The position numbers were made by a program, and so were the translations under genes. Under the pieces are notes generated by a model, which had not been told where the DNA came from, searched no databases, and saw only the letters and a program-made list of their open reading frames with translations. This document shows positions 266 through 44,851 of a DNA stretch of 64,000 nt, in pieces. Location of the stretch: contig JBNRSN020000010.1 in NCBI GenBank assembly GCA_051313645.2, positions 36,146,001 through 36,210,000 on the forward strand. Direction: 5' to 3'. The stretch is from Centroscyllium fabricii. Its lineage: Eukaryota. Every line of letters begins with the position of its first letter. Within the stretch, counting starts at the first letter, position 1.

Positions 266-1353
266 GTTTAGGCATACATTGGAAATGGTACAGGGTTACC
301 AGCGTATGCTCTGGATCGCTCCGACTGACCAGGCAGCTAACACTCTGGCTACAGTTACGATTCAAGGTTGTTACATAGGAACATAGGAATTCTAGACAAA
401 AGATCAAGCACTTTTGAGTTCACCCTCTAACATCCTGGTCGTCGCCTGATACGACAATAATGGAGTTGTTGACTAATCACAGCAATCAATCACTATCAAT
501 TAGCCTACAACAGACCCAGACATAGAATCATAGAATCTCACAGCACAGGAGGAGGCCATTCGGCCCATCGTGCCTGTGCCAGCTCTTTGAGCCAGCTACC
601 CAATTAGTCTCTGCTCTTTCCCCATAACCCTGCAATTCTTAAAAGCTACTATTGAATCTGCTTCCACCATGCTTTCAGGCAGTGCATTCTGATCACAACT
701 CGTTGTGTAAAAAAATGTCTCCTCCTCGCCCCCTTGGCTCTTTTGCCAATTTTCTTCAATCTATGTCCTCTGCTCATCGACCCCCCCGCACCCCCCCCGC
801 CCCCCCGCCCCTGGAAATAGATTCTCCCTGTCTTATTTTTAATTGATTTGCGGAATGTGGGCGTCGCTGGCAAGGCCAGCATTTATTGCCCATTCCTAAT
901 TGCCCTTGAGAAGGTGGTGGAGAGCCGCCTCCTTAAACCACTGCAGACCGTGTGGTGAAGGTACTCCCAGTGTTACTACTCTACTCTATCAAAACCTGTC
1001 ATCATTTTGAACACCTCAATTAAATCTCACCGTAACCTTTTCTGCTCTTAAGCGAACAACCCCAGTGTAGAATATGAAAATTCCGATCAAATAATTGAGC
1101 CCACATGGAGGAACGTTGAACAACAGGTCTTTACTTTCAGAAATTGATCTCTGCACTGACTCCAAAAGCCCGCGAATCACGTGATGACATCATTGCGTCG
1201 CATCACGTGGGTCCGTTTTTCCTGTGCTCTTAAAGGGAAGGTTACATACAGAAGTTAAAGGGAATTATACACAAGTGCTTTATATACAGATATCTACAGT
1301 GGGATGTGGACCTGCCACATGTGCCCCCCCAGAATTCTCTTTAACAGAGAGAG

Positions 1354-4300: not shown

Positions 4301-4533
4301 ATGAAGTCCCAGTGGAACCGTTGCCCGTCAAAGCAGACTTCCGCCCACCACTTGCCGAATGTGTGGATAGTGGAGCCATTAGCTGCCTTGAGGGGAGGCC
4401 TGTGCTGACCAGCCTGGATGTCGAGGGTGGACGCGGGCTGTATGCTGCACTGTGCGCCAGTGTCACAGAAAAACCACTGACCCAAGAGGGAGTCCGTAAT
4501 GTAGAGGAGCTTCCCTGCCGAACCTACTGCCAT
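1354..4533 (-). pseudogene. Gypsy pol (protease, RT, RNase H, integrase), frameshifted
   Basis: ORF 3499-4533 has PR CDTGA and RT with YLDD mutated to YLDY. ORF 2213-3541 has RH TTDTSD and IN HHCC/VDLVGPLP. ORF 1354-2262 has SDSGPQF, NGLCERFH and GPF. Confidence 0.9.
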
Positions 4534-4580
4534 TGTTGCAGCGGGAGGGCGGCTAGAAGTGTTCCGCCGCGGCCGCGAGC

Positions 4581-5252
4581 TCAGTGGTCCGGGTTTTTTT
4601 TTGAAGTGAACGTGCAGGGCGGGCGGCGGCGTTGTGCCTTCGCGCCAAACCTGGCGTGGTAGTAGCAGAGACCCGATGCCTGGCGAGCTGGGGCATTTTC
4701 CGCGGGAGCGGGGTGCCTTGTGGCGGCGCAGCTGAGTCTGGTCACGGCAAATATTTTATCGGCTGCTGCCGCGAGCTGAACACAGTCAGTGATCGACGAA
4801 TCCGCAAGGGCGGCCTGAACCTGCTCAGGCAACTGGCTGAGGAACAATGCCCTGAAGAGGAAGCATTGGGTCTCCGATCCAAGCAGCGTGAGCATTTGGC
4901 TCATCAGTTGGGTGAGGGTCGAATCCCCGAGGCCAGGCAATGTGAGCAGCTGGCGGGCTCGCTCGTCTTTAGAGAGACCGAAGACTTGTAGAAGTCTGGA
5001 TTTTAAAGCTTCATACTTGCCCGTCTTCAGCGGACTCTCGAGGAGATCGACGACTCTGGAAGCTGTAGAACTGTCGAGGGCCAAGACAACGTATAGGAAC
5101 TTGGTGTTGTCCTCCTCGACGTCCCGTAGAGTGAACTGGGCCTCGATGTGTACAAACCACGCGGGCGCCTGCTGCTCCCAGAAAGAAGGCAGTTTCAGGG
5201 CCACAGCGTCCGCTGCCATAATGCTGAAGAAGCTGGTGAAAACGTTCACCAA
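4581..5252 (-). CDS. Gypsy Gag with degenerate CHCC knuckle
   Basis: LKLPSFW...AWFVHIEAQF N-terminus. CYYHARFGAKAQR(R)RPPC matches C-X2-H-X9-C-X3-C with one Cys changed to Arg. Confidence 0.85.
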   Translation of the reverse strand: MVNVFTSFFSIMAADAVALKLPSFWEQQAPAWFVHIEAQFTLRDVEEDNTKFLYVVLALDSSTASRVVDLLESPLKTGKYEALKSRLLQVFGLSKDERARQLLTLPGLGDSTLTQLMSQMLTLLGSETQCFLFRALFLSQLPEQVQAALADSSITDCVQLAAAADKIFAVTRLSCAATRHPAPAENAPARQASGLCYYHARFGAKAQRRRPPCTFTSKKNPDH

Positions 5253-5253
5253 C

Positions 5254-5265
5254 TCGGGGTCACCA
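5254..5265 (-). promoter_or_regulatory. Primer-binding site complementary to tRNA-Trp 3' end
   Basis: TGGTGACCCCGA, one base after the 5' LTR on the minus strand. Confidence 0.8.
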
Positions 5266-5391
5266 ATGTAGGAATACGAAAGATCCTATCAAAATAATGG
5301 AGCCCACATGGAGGAACGTTGAACAACAGGTCTTTACTTTCTGAAATCGATCTCTGCACTGACTCCAAAAGCCCGCGAATCACATGATGAC

Positions 5392-6327
5392 TTCAATTCA
5401 ATTCAATTCAATTCAAGTTTTATTGTCATTGCAGAGTACTAGTACAATACAACAAGACGAAGACTCGACTCTCCCGAGAGTAGTGCAAACAAAATAAATA
5501 AATTACATGCAAATTGCATACAGTAAAGTTCATTATCAGTCGTGCAGGTACCGGAGTTTTTTTTTAGAGTTCAGGAGGCTGACAGCCCTGGGGAAGAAGC
5601 TGTTCTGAAATCTAGTCGTGCGGGTGCAAATTGCTCTGTAGCGTCTCCCGGAGGGCAGAGGGGCGAACAGACTGTGGCTGGGGTGTGTGGGGTCTTTAAT
5701 AATGTTCATAGACCTCCGTAAGCAGCGTTTGAGGTAGATGCTTTCCATTGACGGTGGCTGTGTACCGGTAATTCGTTGGGCAGTTTTGACTACCCGCTGC
5801 AGGGTTTTCCAGTCCGAGATAGTGCAATTACCATACCAGACAGTGATGCAGCTTGTCAGTATGCTTTCTATTGTGCAGCGGTAGAAGTTGGAGAGGATGC
5901 CGGATGACAGCCTGGCTTTCTTCAGCTTCCTAAGGAAGTACAGGCGCTGTTGGGCCTTCTTAACCAGAGAGGAGGTGTTTAGTGACCAGGAGAGATCTTC
6001 CGAGATGTGGACCCCGAGGAACTTGAAGCTGGACACCCTTTCCACCTCAGCCCCTTGGATGAAGATGGGGGTGTGTCTTCTGCTTCCAGTCCTCCGGAAG
6101 TCCACTATGATCTCCTTGGTTTTCTTGGTGTTCAGTGCCAGGTTGTTGTCGGCACACCAACCCACAAGGCGCTGGATCTCATCCCTGTAGGCTGACTCGT
6201 CGTTGTTGGTGATCTGGCCAACCACCGTGGTGTCATCCGTGAACTTGATGATCGTGTTGGAGCCATGGACAGCCGCACAGTCGTGAGTGAAGAGGGAGTA
6301 GAGGAGGGGGCTGAGCACACAACCTTG
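5392..6327 (-). mobile_element. 5'-truncated Rex1/Babar-type LINE inserted in the Gypsy 5' LTR
   Basis: ORF 5536-6318 ([17 protein letters not shown]...KFTDDTT...KTKEIIVDFRR). 3' end has AATAAA plus a (TTGAA)n tail. LTR sequence resumes after 6327. Confidence 0.88.
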
Positions 6328-12519: not shown

Positions 12520-15500
12520 TGTGGTAAACCACTCTTTGTATATATATGTATATATTGTTGTAATCGCCTTTTCGCTATGTTGTATTATAGTTCTCTGTAT
12601 GCGATCACCTGGACATGCCCATGCTGGCCCCGCCTGCAACTCCTCCCTCCCAGGACCTGGTATATAAGCGGCCGTCTCCCTTCCCCCAGCCATTCCTGGC
12701 GACGGTCGACTAGCTGGTGCATGTCCACCTTTAGCTAATAAAAGCCTATAGTTTTCACCTCTTAATAACTCGTCTCCGAGGTCGTTAATTCGGTAACAAT
12801 TTTATTAGCTAAATTTGACGATGGAATTGATGCTCAAGCCAGCAACGTTCGAACTGGACCCCCAGACACCAGGCGCATCAAATACCTTTACGCACTGGTT
12901 CGACTGCTTTGATGCATTCATCAAGGCGAACGCAGCGGTCGTCGGGACCAAGGAAGACAAACGGCGTCTTCTCAATGCCCGGGTGGGCCCTCAGGCGTAG
13001 ACGCATCATCGTACGTAGATGCAATCTGGATCCTCAAAGCGAAGTACAACCGGCCACCCAACATCGTCCACGCCAGACACCTCCTGGCTACCAGAAGACA
13101 GCAACCCGGTGAGTCCAACGTGGAGTTCCTACGCACGCTGAGAGTACTCTCCCGGGCCTGTAACTGCAGATCGCAATCAGCCCAGGTCCATGTGGACAGC
13201 CTGATCAGGGACGCGTATGTGACGGGCCTCAGGTCGGACTATATTAGACAAAGGCTGTTAGAACAGAACGGCCTTGACCTGCAGGCGACAGCGGACCTGG
13301 GCAACGCGCTGGATGTGGCATCTCTAAATTTGTCATCATATTCCGGCAACTACGCGGGCCCAGCCCCGACAAATTGGACATCGCCGGCGCCGCGACTGGC
13401 GGAAGAAATGACTGCGGCCGCTCACTCTAAGATGGCCAAATGCTACTTCTGCGGGCAGTCTCAGCATCCGAGACGGAACTGCCCGGCAAAAGACGTGACC
13501 TGCTCGAAATGCGGCAAAAAGGGACACTATGCCAAAGTCTGCAGAGCAACTGCAACGCCGCAACCGAAACCGGGCAGTGCCGCATGTGGGACGTGGGGGC
13601 AGCCATCTTGGACACAGCCATCTTCAATACAGCCCATCGCGTGGCAGCAGACGCCATCTTGGTCTCAGCCACCCCCTCCGCAGTACACCACATGGCGGCA
13701 GCCATCTTGAGGCCAGGCCCCAGACGACTTCTCTATGGATCAAGACGACTCGACCGACCCGATACTAGCATCCGTCACCTTGGATCAGAACAGGGCACAA
13801 CCACTCAGCAGGTCAATGATGACGGTGGAAGTCAACGGACAGGACATCGAGTGCCTCTTTGACAGCGGGAGTACGGTGAGTTTTGTCCACCCAGCAACAG
13901 TAAGGCGCCTCTCTCTTAAGGTTATGCCGGCGAGCCAAAAGATTTCCATGGCATCAAAGTCGGAATCCGCGGACGTCTCCAGACGTTGCGCGGTGGCTCT
14001 AACGGTACAGGGCGTGCACTTTAGCAATATTAAATTTTTCGTGCTGCCGCAGCTCTGCGCTCCATTATTACTAGGCCTGGATTTCCAGTGCCACCTCCAG
14101 AGCGTTACCATGGCGTACGGTGGGCCCCTTCCCCTGCTCACGGTCAGCAACCAGCGCTCCTCGCAGCATCCCCAGCGCGCTACCTGTGGCCTATCGACCC
14201 TTAAGGTCGCCCCTCCCTCGCTCTTTGCTAACCTCACCCCGGACTGCAAGCCCGTCGCCACCAAAAGTAGGCGCTACAGTGCCGGGGACATGGACTTCAT
14301 CAAGTCCGAGGTGAAGGGCCTCCTGAGGGAGGGGGTCATCGAGGCCAGTAACAGCCCTTGGAGGGCGCAGGTAGTGGTGGTGAAGACCGGAGCTAAGAAC
14401 CGGTAGTGGACTATAGCCAGACCATTAACCGGTTCACCCAGTTAGACGCGTACTCTCTTCCCCGGATAGCGGACATGGTAAATCAGATCGCGCAGTTTCG
14501 GGTCTTCTCAACTATAGATCTGAAGTCCGCGTATCACCAGCTCCCCATCCGCCCTGAGGACCGTCTCTATACCGCCTTCGAGGCTGACGGTCGCCTCTAT
14601 CACTTCCTCAGGGTTCCGTTTGGCGTCACGAATGGGGTCTCGGTCTTCCAAAGGGAGATGGACCGAATGGTCGATCAGTACGGGCTGCGGGCCACTTTTC
14701 CGTATCTCGATAATGTGACCATCTGCGGCCACGATCAGCAGGACCATGACGCCAACTTCCAGAAATTTCTCCACACCGCCAAAACACTCAACCTGACCTA
14801 TAACACTGAAAAATGTGTGTTCAGGACCACCCGCCTCGCCATCCTCAGCAGTGTTGTGGAGAATGGGGTCATCGGTCCCGACCCAGACCGCATGCGCCCC
14901 CTCCTGGAGCTCCCCCTCCCCCACTCCCTCAAGGCCCTGAAAAGGTGCCTGGGGTTTTTCGCCTATTATGCCCAGTGGGTCCCCAACTATGCGGACAAAG
15001 CTCGCCCACTACTCAAATCAACCTCATTCCCCCTGTCAGCAGATGCCCGCATGGCGTTCTGCGGCATTAAGGACGACATTGCAAAGGCAACGATGCACGC
15101 CGTGGACGAGTCCATCCCGTTCCAGGTTGAGAGTGATGCATCGGACTTTGCCCTGGCCGCCACCCTTAACCAGGCGGGCAGACCCATGGCCTTCTTCTCA
15201 CGTACCCTCCAGGGCCCCGAGACCCGTCACTCTTCCGTTGAGAAGGAGGCCCAGGCCATTGTTGAAGCAGTGCGTCACTGGAAGCACTACCTGGCCGGCA
15301 AACGATTTACCCTGCTGACTGACCAACGCTCAGTCGCTTTTATGTTCAACAACAAAGAGCGGGGTAAAATCAAGAATGACAAGATACTGAGGTGGAGAAT
15401 TGAGCTCTCCGCTTTCAATTATGATATCTTGTACCGGCCCGGGAAATTCAACGAACCCCCAGATGCCTTATCACGCGGTACATGTGCCAGCGCACAAGTG

Positions 15501-17088
15501 GACCGTCTCCAAACCCTGCACAACGACCTCTGCCACCCGGGGGTCACCAGGTTGGTCCACTTTGTTAAGTCCCGCAACCTCCCCTACTCCATCGAGGAGG
15601 TCAAGACCATGACCAGGAACTGCCAGGTCTGTGCGGAGTGCAAGCCGCACTTCTTTCGGCCAGACCGGGCGCACCTGATCAAGGCCACCCGCCCCTTTGA
15701 ACGACTCAGCGTCGATTTTAAAGGGCCCCTTCCCTCGTCCAACAGAAACGTGTATTTTTTGAACGTCATCGACGAGTGCTCGCGTTTCCCCTTCGCCATT
15801 CCCTGCCCGGACATGACCTCTGCCACTGTCATCAAGGCCCTCCACAGCATTTTCTCCCTGTTCGGCTACCCCAGCTACATCCATAGCGACCGGGGGGCCT
15901 CTTTCATGAGTGACGAGCTGCGTCAGTTTCTGCTAGCCAAAGGCATCGCGACTAGCAGGACTACCAGCTACAACCCCCGGGGGAACGGACAGGTAGAGAG
16001 GGAGAACGCCACGGTCTGGAAGGCCATCCTGTTAGCCCTATGGTCTAAAGGCCTCCCAGTCTCCCGCTGGCAGGACGTCGTCCCTGAAGCGCTCCACTCC
16101 ATCCGGTCACTCCTTTGTACGGCCACTAACACCACCCCTCACGAGCGACTTTTTGCCTTCCCTAGGAAGTCGGCTTCCGGGACCTCGCTGCCGTCATGGC
16201 TATCATCCCCGGGACCAGTCCTACTCAGGAAGCACGTGAGGGGCCACAAGTCAGACCCCCTGGTCGAACGGGTCCACCTCCTGCACGCCAATCCCCAGTA
16301 CGCCTACGTGGCGTATCCCGACGGGAGGGAGGACACCGTGTCCATCAAGGACCTGGCACCAGCGAGGGCCCCCAAAACCAGCCCCGCCCAGCAGCCCGCG
16401 CCCCCGCGCCTGCCAGCCACCCCACCTGGGCCACTGGCACCAAGGTACGCTCCCCAGTACGAGAATCCGGCACCACGGTACGTCCACCCGTAGGCAGCAC
16501 GGCATGGCCTCCGGCATGGCTCCATAGTGCACGCCCCCTAGAGTCAGACGACAAGGGGGAGAGCGCGCCGCCAACCGTCACCGCAAAGGCACCGACGAGG
16601 AACCGACCAACTCAACCGGCTATCTTACGCCCACCGACACCACCACCAGCGGTGCGACCAACTCGACCGGCTATCTTACGCCCGCCGACACCACCACCAG
16701 CGATGCGCCGGTCAACCAGGCTTACCAGGCCGCCTGAAAGACTGAACTTATAACTTAAAAGAACTGTCGCATTCACCCCGCTGGACTTTCATTTTAAAGG
16801 AGGGGTGAATGTGATAAACCACTCTTTGTATATATATGTATATATTGTTGTAATCGCCTTTTCACTATGTTGTATTATAGTTCTCTGTATGCGATCACCT
16901 GGACATGCCCATGCTGGCCCCGCCTGCGACTCCTCCCTCCCAGGACCTGGTATATAAGCGGCCGTCTCCCTTCCCCCAGCCATTCCTGGGGACGGTCGAC
17001 TAGCTGGTGCAGGTCCACCTTTAGCTAATAAAAGCCTATAGTTTTCACCTCTTAATAACTCGTCTCCGAGGTCGTTAATTCGGTAACA
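12520..17088 (+). mobile_element. Gypsy (Mag-like) LTR retrotransposon A, full length, non-tRNA PBS
   Basis: 279-bp LTRs at 12520-12798 and 16810-17088 (about 5 differences by eye). 5-bp TSD GACGT, PPT aaaggaggggtgaa. Gag has two CCHC knuckles, followed by PR FDSGS, RT YLDN, RH and IN. Confidence 0.95.
12821..16753 (+). pseudogene. Single gag-pol ORF of element A with a few disabling lesions
   Basis: ATG at 12821, break near 13000, in-frame TGA at 13708-13710, frameshift near 14404, then a 695-aa RT-RH-IN ORF (14406-16493). C-terminal RPPERLNL. Confidence 0.9.
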
Positions 17089-23978: not shown

Positions 23979-25420
23979 TTTAAAGGGACACTGGGGCCCG
24001 TTTTAAAGGGACACTGGGGGCCATTTTAAAGGGACACTGGGGGCTATTTTAAAGGGACACTGGGGCCCATTTTAAAGGGACACTGGGGCCCATTTTAAAG
24101 GGACACTGGGGGCCATTTTAAAGGGACACTGGGGGTTATTTTAAAGGGACACTGGTAGCCATTTTAAAGGGACACCGGGGGCCATTTTAAAGGGACACCG
24201 GGGGCTATTTTAAAGGGACACTGGGGGCCATTTTAAAGGGACACTGGGGGCCATTTTAAAAGGACACTGGGGCCCATTTTAAAGGGACATTGGGGCCATT
24301 TTAAAGGGACACTGGGGGCCATTTTAAAGGGGCACTGGGGACCATTTTAAAGGGACACTGGGGCCCATTTTAAAGGGACATTGGGGCCATTTTAAAGGGA
24401 CACTGGGTGCCATTTTAAAGGGACACTGGGGGCTATTTTAAAGGGACACTGGGGGCCATTTTAAAGGGACATTGGGGCTATTTTAAAGGGACACTGGGGG
24501 CCATTTTAAAGGGACACTGGGGGCCATTTTAAAGGGACACTGGGGCCCATTTTAAAGGGACACTGGGGGTCATTTTAAAGGGACACTGGGGGCCATTATT
24601 AAGCGACACTGGGGGACATTTTAAAGGGACACGGGGCCATTTTAAAGGGACACTAGGGGCCATTTTAAAGCGACACTGGGGGCCCTTTTAAAGGGACATT
24701 GGGGCCATTTAAAAAGGACACTGGGGTCCATTTAAAAAGGACACTGGGGGCCATTTAAAAAGGACACTGGGGCCATTTTAAAGGGACACTGGGGGCCATT
24801 TTAAAGGGAAACTGGGGGCCATTTTCAAGGGACACTGGGGGCCGTTTTAAAGGGTCACCGGGGGCCCTTTTAAAGGGAAACTGGGGGCCATTTTAAAGGG
24901 ACACTGGGGGCCATTTCAAAGGGACACGGGAGCCTATTTTAATGCGGCACACGGGGCCATTTTAAAGGGACACGGGGGCCATTTTAAAGGGGCATGGGGC
25001 CATTTCAAAGGGGCACGGGGGCCATTTCAAAGATGCACGGGGGGCCATTTTAAAGGGGCACAGGGGGCCATTTTAAAGGGGCACGCGGGGCCATTTCAAA
25101 GGGACCCGGGGGCCATTTTAAAGGGCATGGGGGGCCATTTTAAAGGGCATGGGGGCCATTTTAAAGGGGCATGGGGGTCTTTTAAAGGGGCACAGCGACC
25201 ATTTTAAAGGGGCACAGGGGGCCATTTTAAAGGGGCACGGGGGGCCTTTTTAAAGGGACACGCAGGACCATTTTAAAGGGACACTGGGTGCCATTTTAAA
25301 TGGACACTGGGGGCCATTTTGAAGGGACACTGGGGGCCATTTTAAAGGGACACTGGGGGCCATTTTAAAGGGACACTGGTGACCATTTTAAAACGACACT
25401 GGGGGCCATTTTAAGGGTAC
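23979..25420. repeat. 23-bp minisatellite (TTTTAAAGGGACACTGGGGGCCA)n, left part
   Basis: About 60 tandem, slightly variable units. Confidence 0.95.
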
Positions 25421-28400
25421 TGTGGTAATCATATTACCATTGTATATAGTTGGATTGTAGTTGTTCTGCACCACATGACCCATGTGTATAGTTGATTGGT
25501 GCATTGGATGTATTGGATGTAGAACACGGTTGTAAGGCCAGGTCAGCCACACCTCTAACTCCTCCGCTCAGGTGGGAGCCTTATAGGCGAGGTCTGCCCT
25601 GCCCCCAGTCATTCTGAGCCTGATGTTCGTCTGGAGGCTAGCTCCATCGTTAAGCTAATAAAAGCCTATAGTTAAGGTAACTACTCGTCTTTAGTCTTAT
25701 TGACGATACGTCAATTTTATTAGCTTAAATTTTAACATGAGCAGCCCAGCGTCTAACCAACAAGAACCACAGGCGATGCAAGAACCAGAGGCGGCCGCGG
25801 AAAGCCATGCAGTGAAACCGGACAGACTGGATGTAAATCCACAGGAACCAGACGCTGCTAACGCCTTTGAACAGTGGTTCGGCCTAGTCGAGGCCTACAT
25901 GAGGGCCGCAAAGGCAACGAGCGACGGGGACAAACTGAAGGTCCTCTCGTCCAGAATCACCAGCTGGGTATTCTCCTTCATCCGCGGCCTCACGACGTAC
26001 ACAGAGGCGGTGAAGAAACTGAAGGAATGCTACTTGCGCCCGGTCCACTCGGTCTATGCCAGACACGTCCTGGCGACCAGACAACAGCGGCTCGGTGAGT
26101 CGAACGAACAATTTCTGTTGGCGCTTAAAGCCCTCGCTCGGGCCTGTGACTGCCAGCCACGAACGGCGCAGGAGGAGACGAACCTCCTCATACGGGACGC
26201 ATACGTGGCTGGAATCAGGTCCAACCAGGCCCGCGAGCGGTTACTGGAAAAGGACACTCTGTCACTGGAGGATGCGATCTTCATCTCCAACGCAGTGGAC
26301 GGAGCGCGCCGCAAGCTAGAGGCGTATGGCGGCCAAGGCCCACACGATACCCTCGATCCCTGAGTGGCCCCACGACAGGTCGAGAACCCCACAACGGCAG
26401 CGGCAGCGGCGAAGACGCCGTAGGAGCGTAGATGCTACTTCTGCAGCCAGGGACAACACCTGCGAGCGAAATGCCCCGCGAAGAATGTGACCTGCGAGAG
26501 ATGCGGCAAGAAGGGACACTACGCCAGGGCCTGCAAATCGGCCCCAGCGCCCAGCTCCAGATCCAACAGCGCGGTCTGCGAGAGCTCCAACGCCATCCCA
26601 TGGCCTAAGGTAAACTGCTGTTGCAGCGCGACCCGGCAGCGGTCCGGGGGTAAACCACAGGCGTCTCTGTCTCCCATCCCTGTACGGCAGAGGCTGGCCG
26701 CGCGCACGGCACGGGCACCGCCACGCCAATGGCGGCCGCGTTCGGCCATGTGCGACACCCCAATGCCGCCACCTCGCCCAGCGCGGACCGCTGCGTGCGA
26801 ACCATGGGCACCGCCACCTCGTCCACCGCGGTCCGCCGCGTGCGAACCACGGGCGGCACCATCTCGTCCACCGCGGTCCACCGCATGCGAACCACGGGCG
26901 CCGCCATCTCGTCCACCGCGGTCCACCGCGTGCGAATCAGTGGCGCCGCCATCTTGCCCTCAGCGGCCAGCCATCTGCGACTCCCCGGCGCCGCCATCTT
27001 GTTTCCAGCGGCCAGCCATGTGCGACTCCCCGGCGCCGCCATCTTGTCCACCGCGGTCGGCTGCGTGCGACTCCCCGGCACCGCCATCTTGTTTCCAGCG
27101 GCCAGCCATGTGCGACCCCCTGGCACCGCCATCTTGTGCACGGCTCCAGCTAGCGGAGGGCCCCTACACACACACACTTCGGCCTCAGCCATTGTCGACC
27201 AGGCTAGGCCGCACACCCTATCAAATTCCATGATGGGGATTAAAGTGGACGGTCACATTACAAACTGCCTGTTCGACACCAGAAGCACAGAGAGCTTCAT
27301 CCACCCCGACACAGTGCGGCGCTACGCACTGCGGACCCTGCCCACGCGTTACCAAATCTCCCTTGCTTCAAAGTCCCACACGGCGGACGTCACCGGCTAC
27401 TGCTCCGTCACGCTCACAGTCAGGGACTGCGTGTACCGTAATTTTAAACTGTACATACTCCAGCAGTTGTGCGCCCCAGTCTTACTGGGACTGGATTTCC
27501 AGTGCCACCTGAAGAGCGTGACAATGGAGTTCGGCGGGACCCTGACCCCCTCACCGTCAGTAGCCGGGACAATCCCTTCCTAAAGCGGAGCCTGACTTGC
27601 GGCCTATCCACCCTGAAAGTCGACCCCCCCTCGCTGTTCGCCAACCTCAACCCCAACTGCAAACCTATTGCTACCAAGAGTCGGCGTTACAGTGCAGGGG
27701 ACCGGGCATTTATCAGGTCGGAAGTCGGGCATATGCTGCAGGAGGGGATAACGGAGGCCAGCACCAGCCCCTGGCGGGCCCAGGTCGTAGTGGTTAAGAG
27801 CGGCGAGAAACTGCGGATGGTGATCGATTACAGCCAGACAATTAACCGCTACACCGGGCTCGACGCCTACCCCCTTCCCCGCATCTCGGATATGGTTAAC
27901 CAGATCGCCCAGTATACGGTCTTTTCGACAATCGACCTTAAGTCGGCGTATCACCAACTCCCAATCCGGAAATCTGACCGCCAGTACACCGCCTTCGAGG
28001 CGAACGGTCGGCTCTACCACTTCCTCCGGGTCCCCTTCGGCGTGACCAACGGGGTGTCGGTATTCCAAAGGGAGATGGACCGTATGGTTGACCAGAACGG
28101 GTTGCAGGCCACCTTCCCCTACCTGGACAACGTGACCATCTGCGGCCATGACCAGCAGGACCACGATGCCAACCTTGCAAAATTTCTCCACACGGCGAAA
28201 CGGCTCGATCTCACATACAATAAAGACAAGTGTGTCTTTAGAACAGATCGGCTCGCTATCCTCGGATACATGGTGGAAAACGGGGTCCTCGGCCCCGACC
28301 CACAGCGCATGCGCCCCTTACAGGAACTGCCCCTACCTCACAACCCCAAGGCCCTGAGGAGATGTCTGGGATTTTTCTCCTATTACGCACAATGGGTTCC

Positions 28401-30438
28401 CCAGTTCGTGGATAAGGCCAGACCGCTCCTCAAGGCCGACGTCTTCCCCCTCTCGGTAGAAGCCCAAACGGCATTCGCCCTGATTAAGGAAGACATCATC
28501 AAGGCGACCATGCATGCCGTTGATCAGTCCATCCCTTTCCAGGTGGAGAGTGACGCTTCGGACTTTGCCCTTGCCGCCACCCTGAACCAGGCAGGCAGGC
28601 CCGTTGCGTTTTTCTCCCAGACCCTACAGGGACCCGAAACTCGCCACTCAGCAGTGGAAAAGGAGGCCCAGGCCATCATGGAGGCAGTGCGCTACTGGCG
28701 TCAGTACCTGGCCGGTAAGCGTTTTACCCTGCTCACCGACCAACGGTCGGTCGCGTTTATGTTTAACAATAAACAAAAGGGTAAAATCAAGAATGATAAC
28801 ATCCTGCGGTGGCGGATCGAACTCTCGACTTACGAGTATGACATTCTTTACCGCCCAGGCAAATGCAACGAACCCCCGGACGCACTGTCCAGGGGAACGT
28901 GCGCCAGCGCCCAGCTGGACCAGCTGAAGGCCCTCTACGATAGCCTCTGCCGCCCGGGTGTCACCAGACTCGCCCATTTCGTTAAGTCCCGTAGCCTCCC
29001 CTACTCCATCACGGAGATCAAGGCTATGACCCGAGAGTGCCCTGTCTGCGCCGAGTGCAAACCCCAATTTTACAGGCCAGACACGGCGCACATCATCAAG
29101 GCCACCCGCCCCTTTGAACGTCTGAGCGTGGACTTCAAAAGCCCCCTCCCCTCCACCGACCGCAACTCGTACTTCCTCACGGTCGTGGACGAGTTCTCCC
29201 GCTTCCCCTTCGCCTTCCCCTGCCCAGATATGACGAGCGCAACGGTGATAAGACACTTCACCACGCTGTTCGCCATTTTCGGTCTCCCCAGCTACATCCA
29301 TAGCGACCGGGGGTCGTCGTTCATGAGCGACGAACTGTGTCAGTTTCTGCTTCAGAAAGGGGTTGCCGCAAGCAGAATGACCAGTTACAATCCCCCGGGG
29401 GAACGGCCAGGTAGAAAGGGAGAATGGGATCATCTGGAAGGCAGTCAACCTGGCCCTGAAGTCCAGAGGCATTCCAGTGTCCCGTTGGCAGGCAGTGCTC
29501 CCAGACGTGCTCCACTCCATCCGCTCTCTGCTGTGTACGGCTACAAATGCTACACCTCACGATCTATTATTTTCCTTCCCCAGGAAGTCGACTTCGGGGA
29601 CAGCACTCCCACCGTGACTCACGACGCCGGGGCCGGTCTTACTTAGGAAACATGTCCGCAGCCATAAGACCGACCCCCTGGTGGAAAAGGTGCAGCTGCT
29701 GCACGCCAACCCGCAGTATGCCTACGTGCAGTTCCTGGACGGGCGCGAGGACACAGTTTCAATCAGAGACCTAGCACCCGCCGGGAGCACTATGGCAGAA
29801 CCCCCGGTCGAGCCTCAGCCCGACCAGCCACCATCTACCGAACACTGGCCTATATATCAACCAACATCCACCGATTACTGGCCTAGATACGCACACACAC
29901 CGGGGCCCCCGACGCTATCGGACGACAACCTAGGGCCGGACGCCACGATGCAGGCACTGTTGCCGGAGGACCCGACCCCGTCACCACAACCGGCACCAGC
30001 GCCGCTACCGGAACCCCAGCGGTCATCACGACAGACACGACCACCGGAAAGACTCATAGAAAATTGCTGATACGGACACATATATTTTTTTTGCACTGTT
30101 CCGTTCCATTCACCCCGCCGGACTCATTTTCAAAGAAGGGGTGAATGTGGTAATCATATTACCATTGTATATAGTTGGATTGTAGTTGTACTGCACCACA
30201 TGACCCATGTGTATAGTTGATTGGTGCATTGGATGTATTGGATGTAGAACACGGTTGTAAGGCCAGGTCAGCCACACCTCTAACTCCTCCCCTCAGGTGG
30301 GAGCCTTATAGGTGAGGTCTGCCCTGTCCCCAGTCATTCTGTGCCTGATGTTCGTCTGGAGGCTAGCTCCATCGTTAAGCTAATAAAAGCCTATAGTTAA
30401 GGTAACTACTCGTCTTTAGTCTTATTGACGATACGTCA
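25421..30438 (+). mobile_element. Gypsy (Mag-like) LTR retrotransposon B, full length, non-tRNA PBS, inserted in the minisatellite
   Basis: 293-bp LTRs at 25421-25713 and 30146-30438. 5-bp TSD GGTAC, PPT aaagaaggggtgaa, gag-PR-RT-RH-IN. Confidence 0.95.
25737..30070 (+). pseudogene. gag-pol of element B, with stops and frameshifts
   Basis: ORF pieces 25737-26363, 26487-27233, 26729-27583, 27469-29646 and 29681-30070. Two zinc knuckles, RT YLDN, IN SDRGSSF. Confidence 0.9.
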
Positions 30439-30625
30439 GGTACACTGGGGGCCATTTTAAAGGAACACTGGGAGCCATTTTAAAAGGACACTGGGAGCCA
30501 TTTTAAAAGGACACGGGGCCGTTTTAAGGGGACACTGGTGGCCATTTTAAAGGGACACTGGGGGCCATTTTAAAGGGACACGGGGGCCATTTTAAAGGGA
30601 CACTGGGGACCATTTTAAAAGGACA
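30439..30625. repeat. 23-bp minisatellite, right part
   Basis: The same unit resumes directly after the 3' LTR. Confidence 0.9.
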
Positions 30626-34413: not shown

Positions 34414-34623
34414 TGGACAATTGCAAGAAGTCACACAACACCAGGTTATAGTCCAACAGTTTTATTTTAAATCACAAGCTTTCGGAGCGTCTGCCCCTTC
34501 GTCAGGTGAAGGGGCAGAAGCTCCGAAAGCTTGTGATTTAAAATAAAACTGTTGGACTATAACCTGGTGTTGTGTGACTTCTTGCAATTGTCCACCCCAG
34601 TCCAACACCGGCACCTCCACATC
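34414..34623. mobile_element. Palindromic Penelope-type pLTR insertion carrying a hammerhead motif
   Basis: 87-bp inverted arms at 34414-34500 / 34508-34594 (1 mismatch). Flanking direct repeat GAGACTTATGGA (34406-34417 / 34624-34635). Minus strand CUGACGA-A-GGGGC agac GCUCC-GAAA-GCUU. Confidence 0.75.
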
Positions 34624-36798: not shown

Positions 36799-38397
36799 GG
36801 TGGGGAGTGAGAAATTTACGGAACCTTCTTCACGCCGCTGATGATTTTGGGTAGACTCCGTGATGGGGTGGAAGCTTGTCGGACCGAATCTCTTACTCCA
36901 CGCTTCCTTGTGCGTAAAACCTTGAGCCGCCTTCTCTTCACTGAGTGTAAGAGAGAAAGAGCACATTCTATCTGCGTGTCTCAATGAAATTTCCAACACT
37001 TTCGAGAATACTCAATCACAGTTTGTGTGAGTCACTCACCCAGGGGATAACCTTTGGCGTTTGGACAAACCCATTGAAATTCTCCCACTTTGTCTCCTCG
37101 TAGAATCATCTGCATAGAAGGAGACCATTTGGCCCACTGTGCCTGTGCTAGCTCTTTGAATCAGCTATTCCAGTTACTCCATTCCCGACCCTGCCCTTTC
37201 CCCAGAGATTGTTTTCCTTTTGAAAGTACGTAGCCAATTCCCTTTTGAAAGTTCCTATTGAATATGTTTCCATCCCAATTTCAGGGAGTATATTCCAGAT
37301 CAGCTCAAGTCACTGTGTTAAAAAACAATTCTCCTCATCTCCCCACCCTCCCCAACACCCTTTTTGTGGTTTGTGAGTTTATTCCAGGGAGATGCACAGT
37401 TTGGTGACATCCCCCTTCTCCCCCGCCACCATCCCTCCAATCTGACTTCCTAATCCAGGACACTGAAGGTGACAGTGGCACCTCAGCCATTGTCCAGCTG
37501 AGATCAGTTAACTCGGCATTGACCAGGGACTGACACTTGGGACACTCTTGGCCCCGATGCTTTCAGTTGCGCACTACGGAACTGTACCTATGAATCTGTT
37601 GGTGACCTGTTTGTTACAGTGCTGCCCGTAACCTAACTCGCACCAAGCCCTGTTCACCCAACAACCCTGGCTCCCGGTCGAGCAACATCGCGATTTAAAA
37701 ATTCTCATCCTTGTGTTCAAATCCCTCCATAGCCTTTCCCCTCCCTACCTCTGTAATCGCATCCAGCCTTACAACCAAATTTTCATTGTCAATGTTTGTC
37801 TGATGGTGTTCACGGTGGTTTGTTCATGTGGGTGTTGATGGTGTGGGTGTCAATGCTGGTGGTGTCGATGCTGGTGGTGTTGATGGTGTGGGTGTCGATG
37901 GTGTGGGTGTCGATGGTGTGGGTGTCGATGGTGGGGGTGTCGATGGTGGGGCTGTCGATGGTGGGGGTGTGGATGGTGGCGGTGTCGATGGTGGCGGTGT
38001 GGATGGAGGCGGTGTGGATGGAGGCAGTGTTGATGGTGAGGGTGTCGATGGTGAGAGTGTCGATGATGAGGGTGTCGATGGTGAGGGTGTCGATGGTGAG
38101 GGTGTCAATGGTGAGAGTGTCGATGGTGAGGGTGTCGATGGTGAGGGTGTCGATGGTGAGGGTGTCGATGGTGAGGGTGTCGATGGTGAGGGTGCCGATG
38201 GTGAGGGTGTAGATGGTGAGGGTGTCGATGGTGAGGGTGTCGATGGTGAGGGTGTCGATGGTGAGGGTGTCGATGTTGTGGGTGTCGATGTTGTGGGTGT
38301 CGATGGTGTGGGTGTCGATGGTGTGGGTGTCGATGGTGTGGGTGTCGATGGTGGGGGTGTCGATGGTGGGGCTGTCGATGGTGAGGGTGTCGACGGC

Positions 38398-38800
38398 GGC
38401 GGCACGGTGGCACAGTGGGTAGCACTGTTGTCTCACAGCACTGGAGACCCGGGTTCAAATCCAGCCTCGGGTACTATCTGTGTGGAGTTTGCACATTCTC
38501 CCCGTGTCTGCGTGGGTTTCCTCCGGGTGCTCCGGTTTCCTCCCACAGTCCAAAGATGTGCGGGTTAGGTTGATTGGCCGTGATAAATTGACCCTTAGTG
38601 TTAGGGGGATTGAATATGTGGGGTTACGGGGATAGGGTGGGATATGTGTCAGTGCAGGCTCGATAGGGATCGAGGGATATGGGGACAAGGCAGGGGTGGG
38701 GTACTGGGTTTGGATGATCAGCCATGATCTCATTGAATGGCGGAGCAGGCTCGAAGGGCCGAATGGCCTACTCCTGCTCCTAGTTTCTATGTTTCTATGA
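38398..38800 (+). mobile_element. HE1-like V-SINE fused to a CR1 3' end (copy 1)
   Basis: tRNA head plus V-domain, switching after ggctcgat to a CR1 3' UTR ending ctatgtttctatg. Confidence 0.85.
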
Positions 38801-40847
38801 TGTTGTGTGTGTCGATGTGGGTGTCGATGGTGAGGGTGTCGACGGTGTTGCTGGTGATGGTGTTGATGGTGAGGGTGTTGATGGTGAGGGTGTTGATGGT
38901 GAGGGTGCTGATGGTGAGAGTGTTGATGGTGAGAGTGTTGATGGTGAGAGTGTCGATGGTGAGGGTGTCGATGGTGAGAGTGTCGATGGTGAGGGTGTCG
39001 ATGGTGAGGGTGTCGATGGTGAGGGTGTCGATGGTGAGGGTGTCGATGGTGAGGGTGTCGATGGTGAGAGTGTCGATGGTGAGGGTGTCGATGGTGAGGG
39101 TGTCGATGGTGAGAGTGTCGATGGTGAGGGTGTCGATGGTGAGGGTGTCGATGGTGATGGTGTTGATGGTGATGGTGAGAGTGTTGATGGTGAGTATGAT
39201 GATGGTGAGTGTTGATGATGAGAGTGTCGATGGTGATGGTGTTGATGGTGAGGGTGTTGATGGTGACGATGTCGATGGTGAGGGTGTCGATGGTGAGGGT
39301 GTCGATGGTGAGAGTGTTGATGGTGAGGGTGTCGACAGTGAGGGTGTCGATGGTGAGGGTGTTGATGGTGAGGGTGTTGATGGTGACGATGTCGATGGTG
39401 AAGGTGTCGATGGTGAGGGTGTCGATGGTGAGGGTGTCGATGGTGAGTGTCGATGGTGAGGGTGTCGATGGTGAGGGTGTCGATGGTGAGGTTCTCGATG
39501 GTGAGGGTGTTGATGGTGATGGTGTTGATGGTGAGGGTGTTGATGGTGTGGATGTCGATGGTGAGGGTGTCGATGGTGATGGTGTCGATGGTGAGGGTGT
39601 CGATGGTGAGGGTGTTGATGGTGAGGGTGTTGATGGTGACGATGTCGATGGTGAAGGTGTCGATGGTGAGGGTGTCGATGGTGAGGGTGTCGATGGTGAG
39701 AGTGTTGATGGTGAGGGTGTCGATGGTGAGGGTGTCGATGGTGAGGTTCTCGATGGTGAGGGTGTTGATGGTGATGGTGTTGATGGTGAGGGTGTTGATG
39801 GTGTGGATGTCGATGGTGAGGGTGTCGATGGTGATGGTGTCGATGGTGAGGGTGTCGATGGTGAGGGTGTCGATGGTGAGGGTGTCGATGGTGAGGGTGT
39901 CGATGGTGAGGGTGTCGATGGTGAGGGTGTCGATGGTGAGGGTGTCGATGGTGATGGTGTTGATGGTGATGGTGAGAGTGTTGATGGTGAGTATGATGAT
40001 GGTGAGTGTTGATGATGAGAGTGTCGATGGTGATGGTGTTGATGGTGAGGGTGTTGATGGTGACGATGTCGATGGTGAGGGTGTCGATGGTGAGGGTGTC
40101 GATGGTGAGAGCGTTGATGGTGAGGGTATCGACAGTGAGGGTGTCGATGGTGAGGGTGTTGATGGTGAGGGTGACGATGTCGATGGTGAAGGTGTCGATG
40201 GTGAGGGTGTCGATGGTGAGGGTGTCGATGGTGAGAGTGTCGATGGTGAGGGTGTCGATGGTGAGGGTGTCGATGGTGAGGTTCTCGATGGTGAGGGTGT
40301 TGATGGTGATGGTGTTGATGGTGAGGGTGTTGATGGTGTGGATGTCGATGGTGAGGGTGTCGATGGTGATGGTGTCGATGTTGAGGGTGTCGATGGTGAG
40401 GGTGTTGATGGTGAGGGTGTCGATGGTGAGAGTGTTGATGGTGAGGGTGTCGATGGTGAGGGTGTCGATGGTGAGGTTCTCGATGGTGAGGGTGTTGATG
40501 GTGATGGTGTTGATGGTGAGGGTGTTGATGGTGTGGATGTCGATGGTGAGGGTGTCGATGGTGATGGTGTCGATGGTGAGGGTGTCGATGGTGAGGGTGT
40601 CGATGGTGAGGGTGTCGATGGTGAGGGTGTCGATGGTGAGGGTGTCGATGGTGAGAGTGTTGATGGTGAGAGTGTTGATGGTGAGGGTGTTGATGGTGAG
40701 GGTGTTGATGGTGTGGATGTCGATGGTGAGAGTGTCGATGGTGAGGGTGTCGATGGTGATGGTGTCGATGGTGATGGTGTCGATGGTGAGGGTGTCGATG
40801 GTGAGGGTGTCGATGGTGAGGGTGTCGATGGTGAGGGTGTCGACGGC

Positions 40848-41250
40848 AGCGGCACGGTGGCACAGTGGGTAGCACTGTTGTCACACAGCACTGGAGACCC
40901 GGGTTCAAATCCAGCCTCGGGTACTATCTGTGTGGAGTTTGCACATTCTCCCCGTGTCTGCGTGGGTTTCCTCCGGGTGCTCCGGTTTCCTCCCACAGTC
41001 CAAAGATGTGCGGGTTAGGTTGATTGGCCGTGATAAATTGACCCTTAGTGTTAGGGGGATTGAATATGTGGGGTTACGGGGATAGGGTGGGATATGTGTC
41101 AGTGCAGGCTCGATAGGGATCGAGGGATATGGGGACAAGGCAGGGGTTGGGTACTGGGTTTGGATGATCAGCCATGATCTCATTGAATGGCGGAGCAGGC
41201 TCGAAGGGCCGAATGGCCTACTCCTGCTCCTAGTTTCTATGTTTCTATGA
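40848..41250 (+). mobile_element. HE1-like V-SINE fused to a CR1 3' end (copy 2)
   Basis: Nearly identical to 38398-38800, offset by 2450 bp. Confidence 0.85.
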
Positions 41251-43659
41251 TGTTGTGGGTGTCGATGGTGAGGGTGTCGACGGTGTTGCTGGTGATGGTG
41301 TTGATGGTGAGGGTGTTGATGGTGAGGGTGTTGATGGTGAGGGTGCTGATGGTGAGAGTGTTGATGGTGAGAGTGTCGATGGTGAGGGTGTCGATAGTGA
41401 GGGTGTCGATAGTGAGAGTGTCGATGGTGAGGGTGTCGATGGTGAGAGTGTCGATGGTGAGGGTGTCGATGGTGAGGGTGTCGATGGTGAGAGTGTCGAT
41501 GGTGAGGGTGTCGATGGTGAGGGTGTCGATGGTGAGGGTGTCGATGGTGAGGGTGTCGATGGTGAGGGTGTCGATGGTGAGAGTGTCGATGGTGAGGGTG
41601 TCGATGGTGATGGTGTTGATGGTGATGGTGAGAGTGTTGATGGTGAGTATGATGATGGTGAGTGTTGATGATGAGAGTGTCGATGGTGATGGTGTTGATG
41701 GTGAGGGTGTTGATGGTGACGATGTCGATGGTGAGGGTGTCGATGGTGAGGGTGTCGATGGTGAGAGTGTTGATGGTGAGGGTGTCGACAGTGAGGGTGT
41801 CGATGGTGAGGGTGTTGATGGTGAGGGTGTTGATGGTGACGATGTCGATGGTGAAGGTGTCGATGGTGAGGGTGTCGATGGTGAGGGTGTCGATGGTGAG
41901 AGTGTCGATGGTGAGGGTGTCGATGGTGAGGGTGTCGATGGTGAGGTTCTCGATGGTGAGGGTGTTGATGGTGATGGTGTTGATGGTGAGGGTGTTAATG
42001 GTGTGGATGTCGATGGTGAGGGTGTCGATGGTGATGGTGTCGATAGTGAGGGTGTCGATGGTGAGGGTGTCGATGGTGAGGGTGTCGATGGTGAGGGTGT
42101 CGATGGTGAGGGTGTCGATGGTGATGGTGTTGATGGTGAGGGTGTTGATGGTGTGGATGTCGATGGTGAGGGTGTCGATGGTGATGGTGTCGATAGTGAG
42201 GGTGTCGATGGTGAGGGTGTCGATGGTGATGGTGTCGATAGTGAGGGTGTCGATGGTGAGGGTGTTGATGGTGAGGGTGTTGATGGTGAGGGTGTTGATG
42301 GTGTGGATGTCGATGGTGAGGGTGTCGATGGTGAGGGTGTTGATGGTGAGAGTGTTGATGGTGAGGGTGTTGATGGTGAGGGTGTTGATGGTGATGGTGT
42401 TGATGGTGAGAGTGTTGATGGTGAGGGTGTCGATGGTGAGGGTGTCGATGGTGAGAGTGTTGATGGTGATGGTGAGAGTGTTGATGGTGAGTATGATGAT
42501 GGTGAGTGTTGATGGTGAGAGTGTCGATGGTGATGGTGTTGATAGTGAGGGTGTTGATGGTGAGGGTGTTGATGGTGATGGTGTCGATGGTGAGGGTGTT
42601 GATGGTGAGGGTGTTGATGGTGATGGTGAGAGTGTTGATGGTGAGTATGATGATGGTGAGTGTTGATGGTGAGAGTGTCGATGGTGATGGTGTTGATAGT
42701 GAGGGTGTTGATGGTGAGGGTGTTGATGGTGAGAGTGTCGATGGTGAGAGTGTTGATGGTGAGGGTGTCGATGGTGAGGGTGTCGATGGTGAGGGTGTTG
42801 ATGGTGAGGGTGTTGATGGTGATGGTGTCGATGGTGAGGGTGTCGATAGTGAGGGTGTTGATGGTGAGGGTGTTGATGGTGATGGTGTCGATGGTGAGGG
42901 TGTTGATGGTGAGGGTGTCGATGGTGAGGGTGTCGATGGTGAGAGTGTCGATGGTGAGAGTGTTGATGGTGAGGGTGTCGATGGTGAGGGTGTCGATGGT
43001 GAGGGTGTCGATGGTGATGGTGTTGATGGTGAGAGTGTTGATGGTGAGTATGATGATGGTGAGTGTTGATGGTGAGAGTGTCGATGGTGATGGTGTTGAT
43101 AGTGAGGGTGTTGATGGTGAGGGTGTTGATGGTGATGGTGTCGATGGTGAGGGTGTTGATGGTGAGGGTGTCGATGGTGAGGGTGTCGATGGTGAGAGTT
43201 TTGATGGTGAGGGTGTTGATGGTGACGATGTCGATGGTGAGGGTGTCAATGGTGAGAGTGTTGATGGTGAGGGTGTCGATGGTGAGGGTGTCGATGGTGA
43301 GGGTGTTGATGGTGAGGGTGTTGATGGTGTCGATGTCGATGGTGAAGGTGTCGATGGTGAGGGTGTTGATGGTGAGGGTGTCGATGGTGAGAGTGTTGAT
43401 GGTGAGGGTGTCGATGGTGAGGGTGTCGATGGTGAGGTTCTCGATGGTGAGGGTGTTGATGGTGATGGTGTTGATGGTGAGGGTGTTGATGGTGATGGTG
43501 TCGATGGTGAGGGTGTCGATGGTGAGGGTGTCGATGGTGAGGGTGTCGATGGTGAGGGTGTCGATGGTGAGGGTGTCGATGGTGAGAGTGTTGATGGTGA
43601 GAGTGTTGATGGTGAGGGTGTTGATGGTGATATTGTTGATGGTGAGAGTGTTGATGGTG

Positions 43660-44242
43660 CGGGCCTTTGTTGGGCCGTGGTCAGTAAATGTCTAGCATAG
43701 ACATCGTTTGGTGCCTTAGTATATAGTTCTGTCAGTGCTTGGATTACCTCATTATAGTTATCCAGTTTATCAACATATTCATGTATGTTTGGGGACACAT
43801 AATTCACAAGTAACCGTAGTTTGGTAGAGGCATCCTCATAACATTCTTCAAGAAAATTCTCAAAAGTATGGAACCAATGCTTCCATACCTTGGCAGCTGC
43901 TGGTCCATTTGGGTCCAGATCCAGGCGAGTCGGTTTGAGGAGGCTTTCCATGATGGGTTGGTCCCTGGATCCTCAGTTCCGTGCTGTCCAAAAGTTTTAA
44001 AGATTTTGAGCGTGAAGTTTTTAGTGGATTAAATTGATGTAATAATGGAGTCTGATACATCAATAACTTCTTTAATCCACTATATTATCACTATGTACAA
44101 AGATGGGTTTTATTATGCTTTCAGGTGAAGCGTTCACCCCATACTGAGCAGTTCCAGTATTTATACTAACAGAAAACAGGAAGTGACATGTACAGAGTTC
44201 ACCTCTTAGCCTTCCCCCGGAAGTCTGTTCAATATTACCACA
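43660..44242 (-). mobile_element. Truncated Gypsy (Mag-like) element C: 5' LTR (44035-44242), non-tRNA PBS and gag N-terminus
   Basis: TGTGGTAAT...ACATCA LTR. Gag MESLLKPTRLDLDPN...WKHW...YARHLL (ATG at 43951) is homologous to the Gag of A, B and D. Satellite lies on both sides. Confidence 0.85.
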
Positions 44243-44851
44243 GTGAGGGTGTCGATGGTGATGGTGTTGATGGTGAGGGTGTGGATGGTGATGGTGTCGA
44301 TGGTAAGGGTGTCAATGGCGATGGTGTCAATGGTGAGGGTGTCAATGGTGAGGGTGTCGATGGTGAGGGTGTTGATGGTGAGGGTGTTGATGGGGAGAGT
44401 GTTGATGATGAGGGTGTTGATGGTGAGGGTGTCGATGGTGAGGGTGTCGATGGTGAGGGTGTCGATGGTGAGGGTGTCGATGGTGAGGGTGTCGATGGTA
44501 TGGGTGTCGATGCTGAGGGTGTCGATGCTGAGGGTGTCAAAGGTGAGGGTGTCGAAGGTGAGGGTGTCGATGGTGAGGGTGTCAATGGTGAGGGTGTCAA
44601 TGGTGAGGGTGTCGATGGTGAGGGTGTCGATGGTGAGGGTGTCAATGGTGAGGGTGTCGATGGTGAGGGTGTCGATGGTGTGGGTGTCGATGGTGTGGGT
44701 GTCGATGCTGAGGGTGTCGATGTTGAGGGTGTCGATGTTGAGGGTGTCGATGCTGAGGGCGTCGATGGTGTGGGTGTCGATGTTGAGGGTGTCAGTGGTG
44801 TCAATGTTGAGGGTGTCGATGGTGTCTGTGTTGGTCAGTCATAGAGTCACA

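Follow-up and report, generated by a model that had tools for sequence, protein, structure and literature searches.

A Ty3/Gypsy retrotransposon family of the shark Centroscyllium fabricii that probably primes reverse transcription with the 5' end of its own RNA

Why should the primer-binding position of a retrotransposon be complementary to a segment of its own long terminal repeat (LTR)? The question is raised by element B, a 5.0-kb Ty3/Gypsy retrotransposon on the forward strand of the window, the 64-kb stretch of C. fabricii DNA analysed here. The segment 25650-25663 is the exact reverse complement of 25715-25728 over 14 bp, with 51 nt between the two arms. The left arm is situated in the R region of the 5' LTR and contains AATAAA at 25657-25662, and the right arm occupies the primer-binding-site (PBS) position. 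The description of this repeat as an LTR/PBS stem in an earlier note on the sequence is therefore confirmed. The stem links the primer-binding position to the element's own LTR and, with a probability of about 0.75, serves to prime reverse transcription with the first ~52 nt of the element's own RNA and not with a tRNA.

Analysis of element B revealed two TG...CA LTRs, a target site duplication (TSD), a polypurine tract (PPT) and the order protease, reverse transcriptase (RT), RNase H and integrase without env, as in Ty3/Gypsy elements. The LTRs (25421-25713 and 30146-30438) are 293 bp long and 98.3% identical to each other, and a 5-bp TSD is present at 25416-25420 and 30439-30443. The host site is a 23-bp minisatellite which spans 23979-25414 and 30438-30625. 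Coding sequence for gag, protease, RT, RNase H and integrase (25737-30070, plus strand) begins with gag at 25737 and is split over several frames. It contains a double CCHC knuckle and the RT motif YLDN, and no match to env or a chromodomain was found in it. A 45-bp tandem repeat of 8.4 copies (26765-27141) is situated between the Gag knuckle and the protease. The PPT region is at 30126-30145. The 3' LTR carries the left arm without its partner. At the 5' end, a single A (25714) separates the final CA of the LTR from the right arm. Three smaller folds surround the stem: a second helix, GCCT/AGGT, within 25664-25678, a predicted hairpin just 5' of the left arm (25632-25646) and a predicted U5-terminal hairpin (25699-25715). 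Both hairpins rest on folding and belong to B-type families, the U5-terminal one to these only; the hairpin 5' of the arm might, speculatively, act as a stop for normal plus-strand copying.

The same stem was found in element A (12730-12813, plus strand; arms 12730-12743 and 12800-12813), which has LTRs at 12520-12798 and 16810-17088 and a 5-bp TSD. Element C possesses a 13-bp version (53651-53974, plus strand; arms 53651-53663 and 53962-53974) with an insertion of ~250 nt in the loop, within 53664-53961, which holds an internal inverted repeat at 53802-53831. No 3' LTR of element C was detected by self-BLAST. All three elements encode YLDN (pol frames 14397-16493, 27448-29646 and 54958-56970). 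A scan of the window for AATAAA and TTTATT 20-119 nt apart with at least 9 bp in total returned the A and B stems only. A different Gypsy-type element on the minus strand (1062-5395), with a DUF7041 Gag match, carries a TGG-starting tRNA-type PBS after its 5' LTR and provides a contrast inside the window. Downstream of element B, two separate 15-bp arrays of ~384 and 39 copies are present at 37830-44824, and a near-perfect inverted repeat with 87-nt arms, 99% complementarity and a 7-nt loop lies at 34414-34594. No tRNA gene was found in the 64-kb window, and no Rfam match was obtained.

To follow the stem through the family, the 7.2-Gb genome was searched with the layout AATAAAAGC-N36-66-CAATTTTATT. 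The layout occurs at 165,712 loci, and a control pattern at 2. The change of one T-A pair in element A to A-T in element B, recorded in the earlier note, was located at the fifth pair outward of AATAAA, and it holds across the family: 27 of 30 fetched close copies of B, a set which includes the window itself and three near-duplicates, match both arms exactly, two have one mismatch and one lacks a pattern match. Among 30,865 loci genome-wide, this pair is T-A in 10,313, A-T in 20,369 and T.T or A.A in 183, against ~13,700 mismatches expected if the two sides were independent, though copies are not independent events. In the first 30 unselected hits, Watson-Crick pairs were observed in 26, 30, 30, 30, 29 and 29 copies at pairs -1 to -6, and in 15 and 12 copies at pairs -7 and -8, the last being at shuffle level. 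At pair -1, G-C was counted 51,127 times, G.T 1,062 times and A.C 867 times genome-wide, and wobble is thus tolerated no better than A.C. Twenty A.C copies were fetched whole. The cognate 3' LTR was available for 13 of them and keeps G in 12, indicating that the mismatch arose after insertion.

Pair -3 behaves in its own way. Single mismatches are symmetric there as at pair -1 (A.C 1,209, G.T 1,573), and A-T occurs in only 25 loci genome-wide. This near absence of A-T shows that the position is constrained in sequence and not merely in pairing; it is G-C in 65 of 66 copies used for a gag tree. Roughly 12 double changes would be expected from independent hits, and two or three of the 25 observed are not true elements. 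In 10 of the 11 A-T loci with a cognate 3' LTR, that LTR has the family base, marking them as post-insertion coincidences, and the double changes at this pair were dropped as evidence for templating. At two loci, L329 and L332, both arms are altered at the same pair in LTRs otherwise 99.6% identical, which may reflect coupled repair in a DNA hairpin.

On the gag tree, from which two long-branch rows were dropped before counting, pair-type changes numbered at least 16, 11, 3, 4 and 5 at pairs -1, -2, -4, -5 and -6, in a set of 66 copies enriched for G-C and partly hand-picked. Single gag columns on the same tree showed a median of 6 changes and a 95th percentile of 14. Double changes thus build up at roughly the rate of the fastest single sites, and mismatched lineages are near-absent. 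Rapid change of whole pairs, with wobble lineages missing, is expected if one arm is copied from the other; a strict demand of the enzyme for Watson-Crick pairs would also fit. Linkage was also tested for a break by strand transfer at the arm, 6 of 127 rows being excluded because of rearrangement or nesting. Partial correlations favoured linkage of R with U3, but with equal-length segments and bootstraps even gag segments leaned likewise. Same-strand, same-family 5' junctions were also seen 4.2 kb apart (C1:4852512/4856730 and C1:5018550/5022723), suggesting tandem elements with a shared LTR.

The earlier note had concluded from the A-to-B swap that selection acts on pairing and not on primary sequence. 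The pairing does exist, extends across the family and very probably has a function, and many pair-type changes support it. The contrast with primary sequence stands only in part, as a portion of the stem is fixed in sequence and the covariation is probably in part mechanical. The single swap between A and B is just one event. If, as is probable, the PBS is templated by the arm, one mutation and one round of replication can yield a "compensatory" pair, and covariation alone does not measure selection here. The loop, which had been called U5, also takes in the end of R, and it is under some constraint, since a GCC/GGY helix adjoins the arm.

Next to the LTR end, the signature of tRNA priming is missing. 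TGG was absent there in 50 of 50 copies, the first ATG lies mostly 21-25 nt beyond the LTR, and no other primer site was found ahead of gag. Within the LTR, an initiator (Inr) motif was present in 47 of 50 copies, 44-55 nt before AATAAA and at -47/-48 in 34 of them, as compared with 1-2 of 50 in three control windows. A TATA-like motif occurs in 45 of 50, mostly 75-76 nt before AATAAA and ~28 nt before the Inr. In element B these motifs are at 25581-25587 (TATA-like box, predicted) and 25609-25615 (Inr), which places the probable transcription start at ~25611, 39 nt upstream of the left arm.

The following course of events is proposed. RNA would start at this point, and its left arm would pair with the site 1 nt past the LTR, a fold which is predicted from complementarity seen directly in the DNA. 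The RNA would be cut at the AAA|RCC junction between the stem and the second small helix (25663/25664 in element B), probably by the element's own RNase H as in Tf1. The new RNA 3' end would prime minus-strand DNA. In element B this putative primer is a 53-nt 5' fragment of the RNA (25611-25663), drawn from the ends of reverse copies at other loci. Across copies it would measure 52-53 nt, with only the last 13-15 nt paired. It would stay covalently attached, and the plus strand would copy these 13-15 nt, so that the PBS is regenerated from the arm. Where copying ran on to the primer 5' end, strand transfer would miss the PBS and leave an internally deleted copy.

Such copies were observed. A search for the LTR end followed by A and the reverse complement of the arm and of R upstream of it found reverse copies of the element's own R at no fewer than 1,708 loci (control 1), about 1% of the ordinary junction count. 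Ninety of the first 100 listed loci were examined and 87 were scored. The end point is the predicted +1, which falls in the Inr, in 12 copies, the base beyond it in 11 and the base before it in 3. As one copy counted among the 11 in fact runs on, 25 of 87 stop within 1 nt of +1, where about 1 would be expected under an even spread. Among the 27 copies ending within 2 nt of +1, 19 resume in gag or pol of the element, 3 antisense. The resumption sites are scattered with microhomology of 1-8 nt (1 nt in 8 of 18), and a few pairs of copies share a landing site and may each be one event. No PPT was found before the LTR in +1-ending copies where the LTR start was located. We read these copies as a 5' LTR with an over-copied primer and a failed second strand transfer. 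The same copies could also form if a plus-strand PBS end that is free re-annealed to another RNA that had not been cut. As an RNA template ends at +1 and a DNA template has no reason to do so, the sharp stop favours RNA. In 12 of 22 cases (p 0.003) the base right after the copy is a C, a hint that the cap could have been copied, though the landing sequence explains some of these C residues.

Other reverse copies are longer. In 29 of 90 the copy extends to the LTR start, in 3 of these 29 it continues through the PPT into the 3' internal region, and the remaining copies end at intermediate points. The class running to the LTR start fits DNA snap-back and also the use of the arm copy in the 3' LTR. 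Self-priming from that copy, by way of a genomic RNA whose 3' end had been cut or trimmed, or from either copy, would account for the crossing of U3 and of the PPT, and PPT priming on such a template could also set an end at the LTR start. We consider it unlikely. Just 51 nt separate the 5' arm from the PBS, and strong pairing of the two in cis is predicted. The sharp peak at +1 requires a template that ends there, and a 5-bp TSD, exact in 5 cases, flanks 7 of the 13 long copies in which the sense LTR start was located. Long copies with a TSD appear to be palindromes that were inserted, the form that plus-strand strong-stop DNA would take after snap-back. Palindromic mini-elements of ~500 bp, made of the LTR, one A and an inverted U3-R and flanked by 5-bp TSDs, were noted at L372, L388, L415, L426 and L438, and also at L422 and L428. 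They look like snap-back cDNA inserted by integrase.

Since such palindromes show that a DNA strand can fold on itself here, the complementarity might be maintained purely in DNA, by fold-back or conversion between the arms with no role for RNA. Two of 11 rare double changes, found in LTR pairs 99.6% identical, are a weak hint of coupled change in this sense. Fold-back supplies no primer, however, and offers no account of why copies stop where the RNA starts, why the spacer is fixed at 1 nt or why the complementarity is conserved from rays to coral-type relatives. This makes it by far the least probable of the explanations weighed here.

Conservation beyond the shark bears on what the stem is for. 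The nearest named proteins are from catshark and rays (72-77% identity), followed by sea anemones, corals, jellyfish and a psyllid (about 59-63%). In 25 of 80 related metagenome loci, the LTR-terminal CA is followed by one A and then by an arm that starts with TTT and is the complement of an LTR segment ending AAA|RCC. These loci represent about 12 families, sorted by eye, with 53-63% RT-RNase H identity where scored. For 12 of the loci the 1-nt spacer could be verified at a second LTR end. Distant relatives thus retain the AAA|RCC junction, and a small RCC/GGY helix directly after it was found in 21 of the 25, as A-T, G-C or G.T. This second helix, which would not be copied, shows family-level G.T, unlike the stem. 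Most of the other metagenome loci lack the 5' end; the close relatives L184 and L218 reach it but are deleted or decayed there. The stem signature was not seen in 18 loci at about 29% RT-RNase H identity, and no relative was found in a scan of viral contigs. In an RT-RNase H tree, the stem-bearing elements fall inside one group of 45-100% identity, apart from the set at about 29%; the rows L195 and L229 of this tree come from nested unrelated elements and are mislabelled. Among 120 listed homologues, the double CCHC knuckle of Gag was found in 81, YLDN in 77 and YLDD in 24, and no Chromo match was found in these or in the open reading frames of the window.

The position of the arm over AATAAA raises another explanation, in which the helix mainly masks the poly(A) signal of the 5' LTR against premature cleavage and something else is the primer. 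In the retroviral poly(A) hairpin, as in HIV-1, AAUAAA is held in a helix near the cap. The shark element differs from this type of occlusion in that the partner strand lies outside the LTR and is the PBS, so masking would be confined to the 5' LTR. The predicted unpaired probability of AAUAAA agrees: it is 0.03 in the 5' context and 0.74 in the 3' LTR for element B, and 0.00 and 0.83, respectively, for element A. The hexamer is inside the arm in every copy found in the genome, as the search pattern required. As the main role, however, masking is improbable, even more so than priming from the 3' LTR. AATAAA or ATTAAA lies within the arm in only 4 of the 12 distant families and is absent from it in 8, three of which leave it in the loop; there is no alternative primer site ahead of gag, and masking would not lead one to expect reverse copies of R next to the LTR end. 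What is conserved, namely the placement at the LTR end and the junction, points to priming, and the distant relatives keep the stem mostly without AATAAA. Priming is thus likely the core role. Masking is compatible with it as a second role, and hiding of AAUAAA in the 5' LTR only is likely a second benefit of the same helix in this lineage, as the predicted folds suggest.

Self-priming by this general route is known. Tf1/sushi elements, Tcn1, TAR/Houba and fungal elements are described as self-primed in PMC6317226, PMC4600332, PMC6934838 and PMC5443660. In Tf1 the first 11 bases anneal to the PBS, RNase H cleaving between bases 11 and 12 (PMC7175516), and about half of the cDNA has a single-stranded PBS copy at its 3' end (PMC11042837). 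The shark element resembles Tf1, Tf2, Tj1 and the Tf1/sushi chromoviruses in a PBS complementary to its own LTR without a tRNA site, in a helix beside the inferred cut and in a primer that seems to be kept and copied into the 3' end of the plus strand, the latter judged here indirectly from genomic reverse copies. The geometry differs: the Tf1 primer is the first 11 nt, fully paired, whereas the shark arm is ~39 nt inside the transcript, counted from the inferred start, and the primer would be 52-53 nt. The shark element also differs from Tf1/sushi in its lack of a chromodomain match, in its double CCHC Gag and YLDN/YLDD RT and in the overlap of the arm with the poly(A) signal in the shark genome. 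It would thus work like Tf1 self-priming, but because of the missing chromodomain match and the different primer geometry it is not filed as a Tf1/sushi chromovirus. The nearest solved RT structure is that of Ty3.

Among animal elements, Cigr-1 is placed in the Mag lineage by PMC6238403 (supplement file 1 row 205), which mentions neither PBS nor priming in its accessible portion. According to PMC3286476, Mag-lineage elements of the insect Culex share with the shark family short LTRs, a 5-bp TSD (most Mag elements, Table 1) and gag-pol without env, and their PBSs match tRNA-Leu, -Ser or -Arg; the shark family has no such PBS. The accessible parts of PMC3601003, PMC2836005, PMC2774666, PMC12440569 and PMC3670739 contain nothing on self-priming in this group. 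The clade name "Selfy" did not occur in the literature searched. Nor did that literature hold a description of self-priming in this element group, Repbase notes, subscription papers and the founding Cigr-1 paper being outside its coverage. The last is reportedly Simmen and Bird 2000, and it may already mention self-priming.

Taken at its widest, the reading is that animal Gypsy elements other than chromoviruses evolved a second self-priming system independently, with a range from corals to sharks. A capped 52-53-nt primer, released by the cut at the conserved AAA|RCC junction, would act as template for its own binding site, so that compensatory changes follow of themselves, and would silence the 5' poly(A) signal as well in sharks and rays. 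The ~1,700 failed products in one genome, among them palindromic mini-elements inserted by integrase, would be a record of the reaction. This broader proposal is held with less assurance than self-priming itself, at somewhat better than even odds. Self-priming is a demonstrated property of Tf1 and a proposed one of its relatives. In the present case it seems to drive a family that has more than 165,000 junctions in one vertebrate genome, outside the Tf1 group and with a primer five times longer than that of Tf1. The genomic reaction intermediates map the 5' end of this primer from DNA alone. Perfect covariation can stem from copying and not from selection, a caution that matters wherever RNA structure is derived from retroelement alignments. 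For the family itself, independence from tRNA would allow escape from silencing by tRNA fragments.
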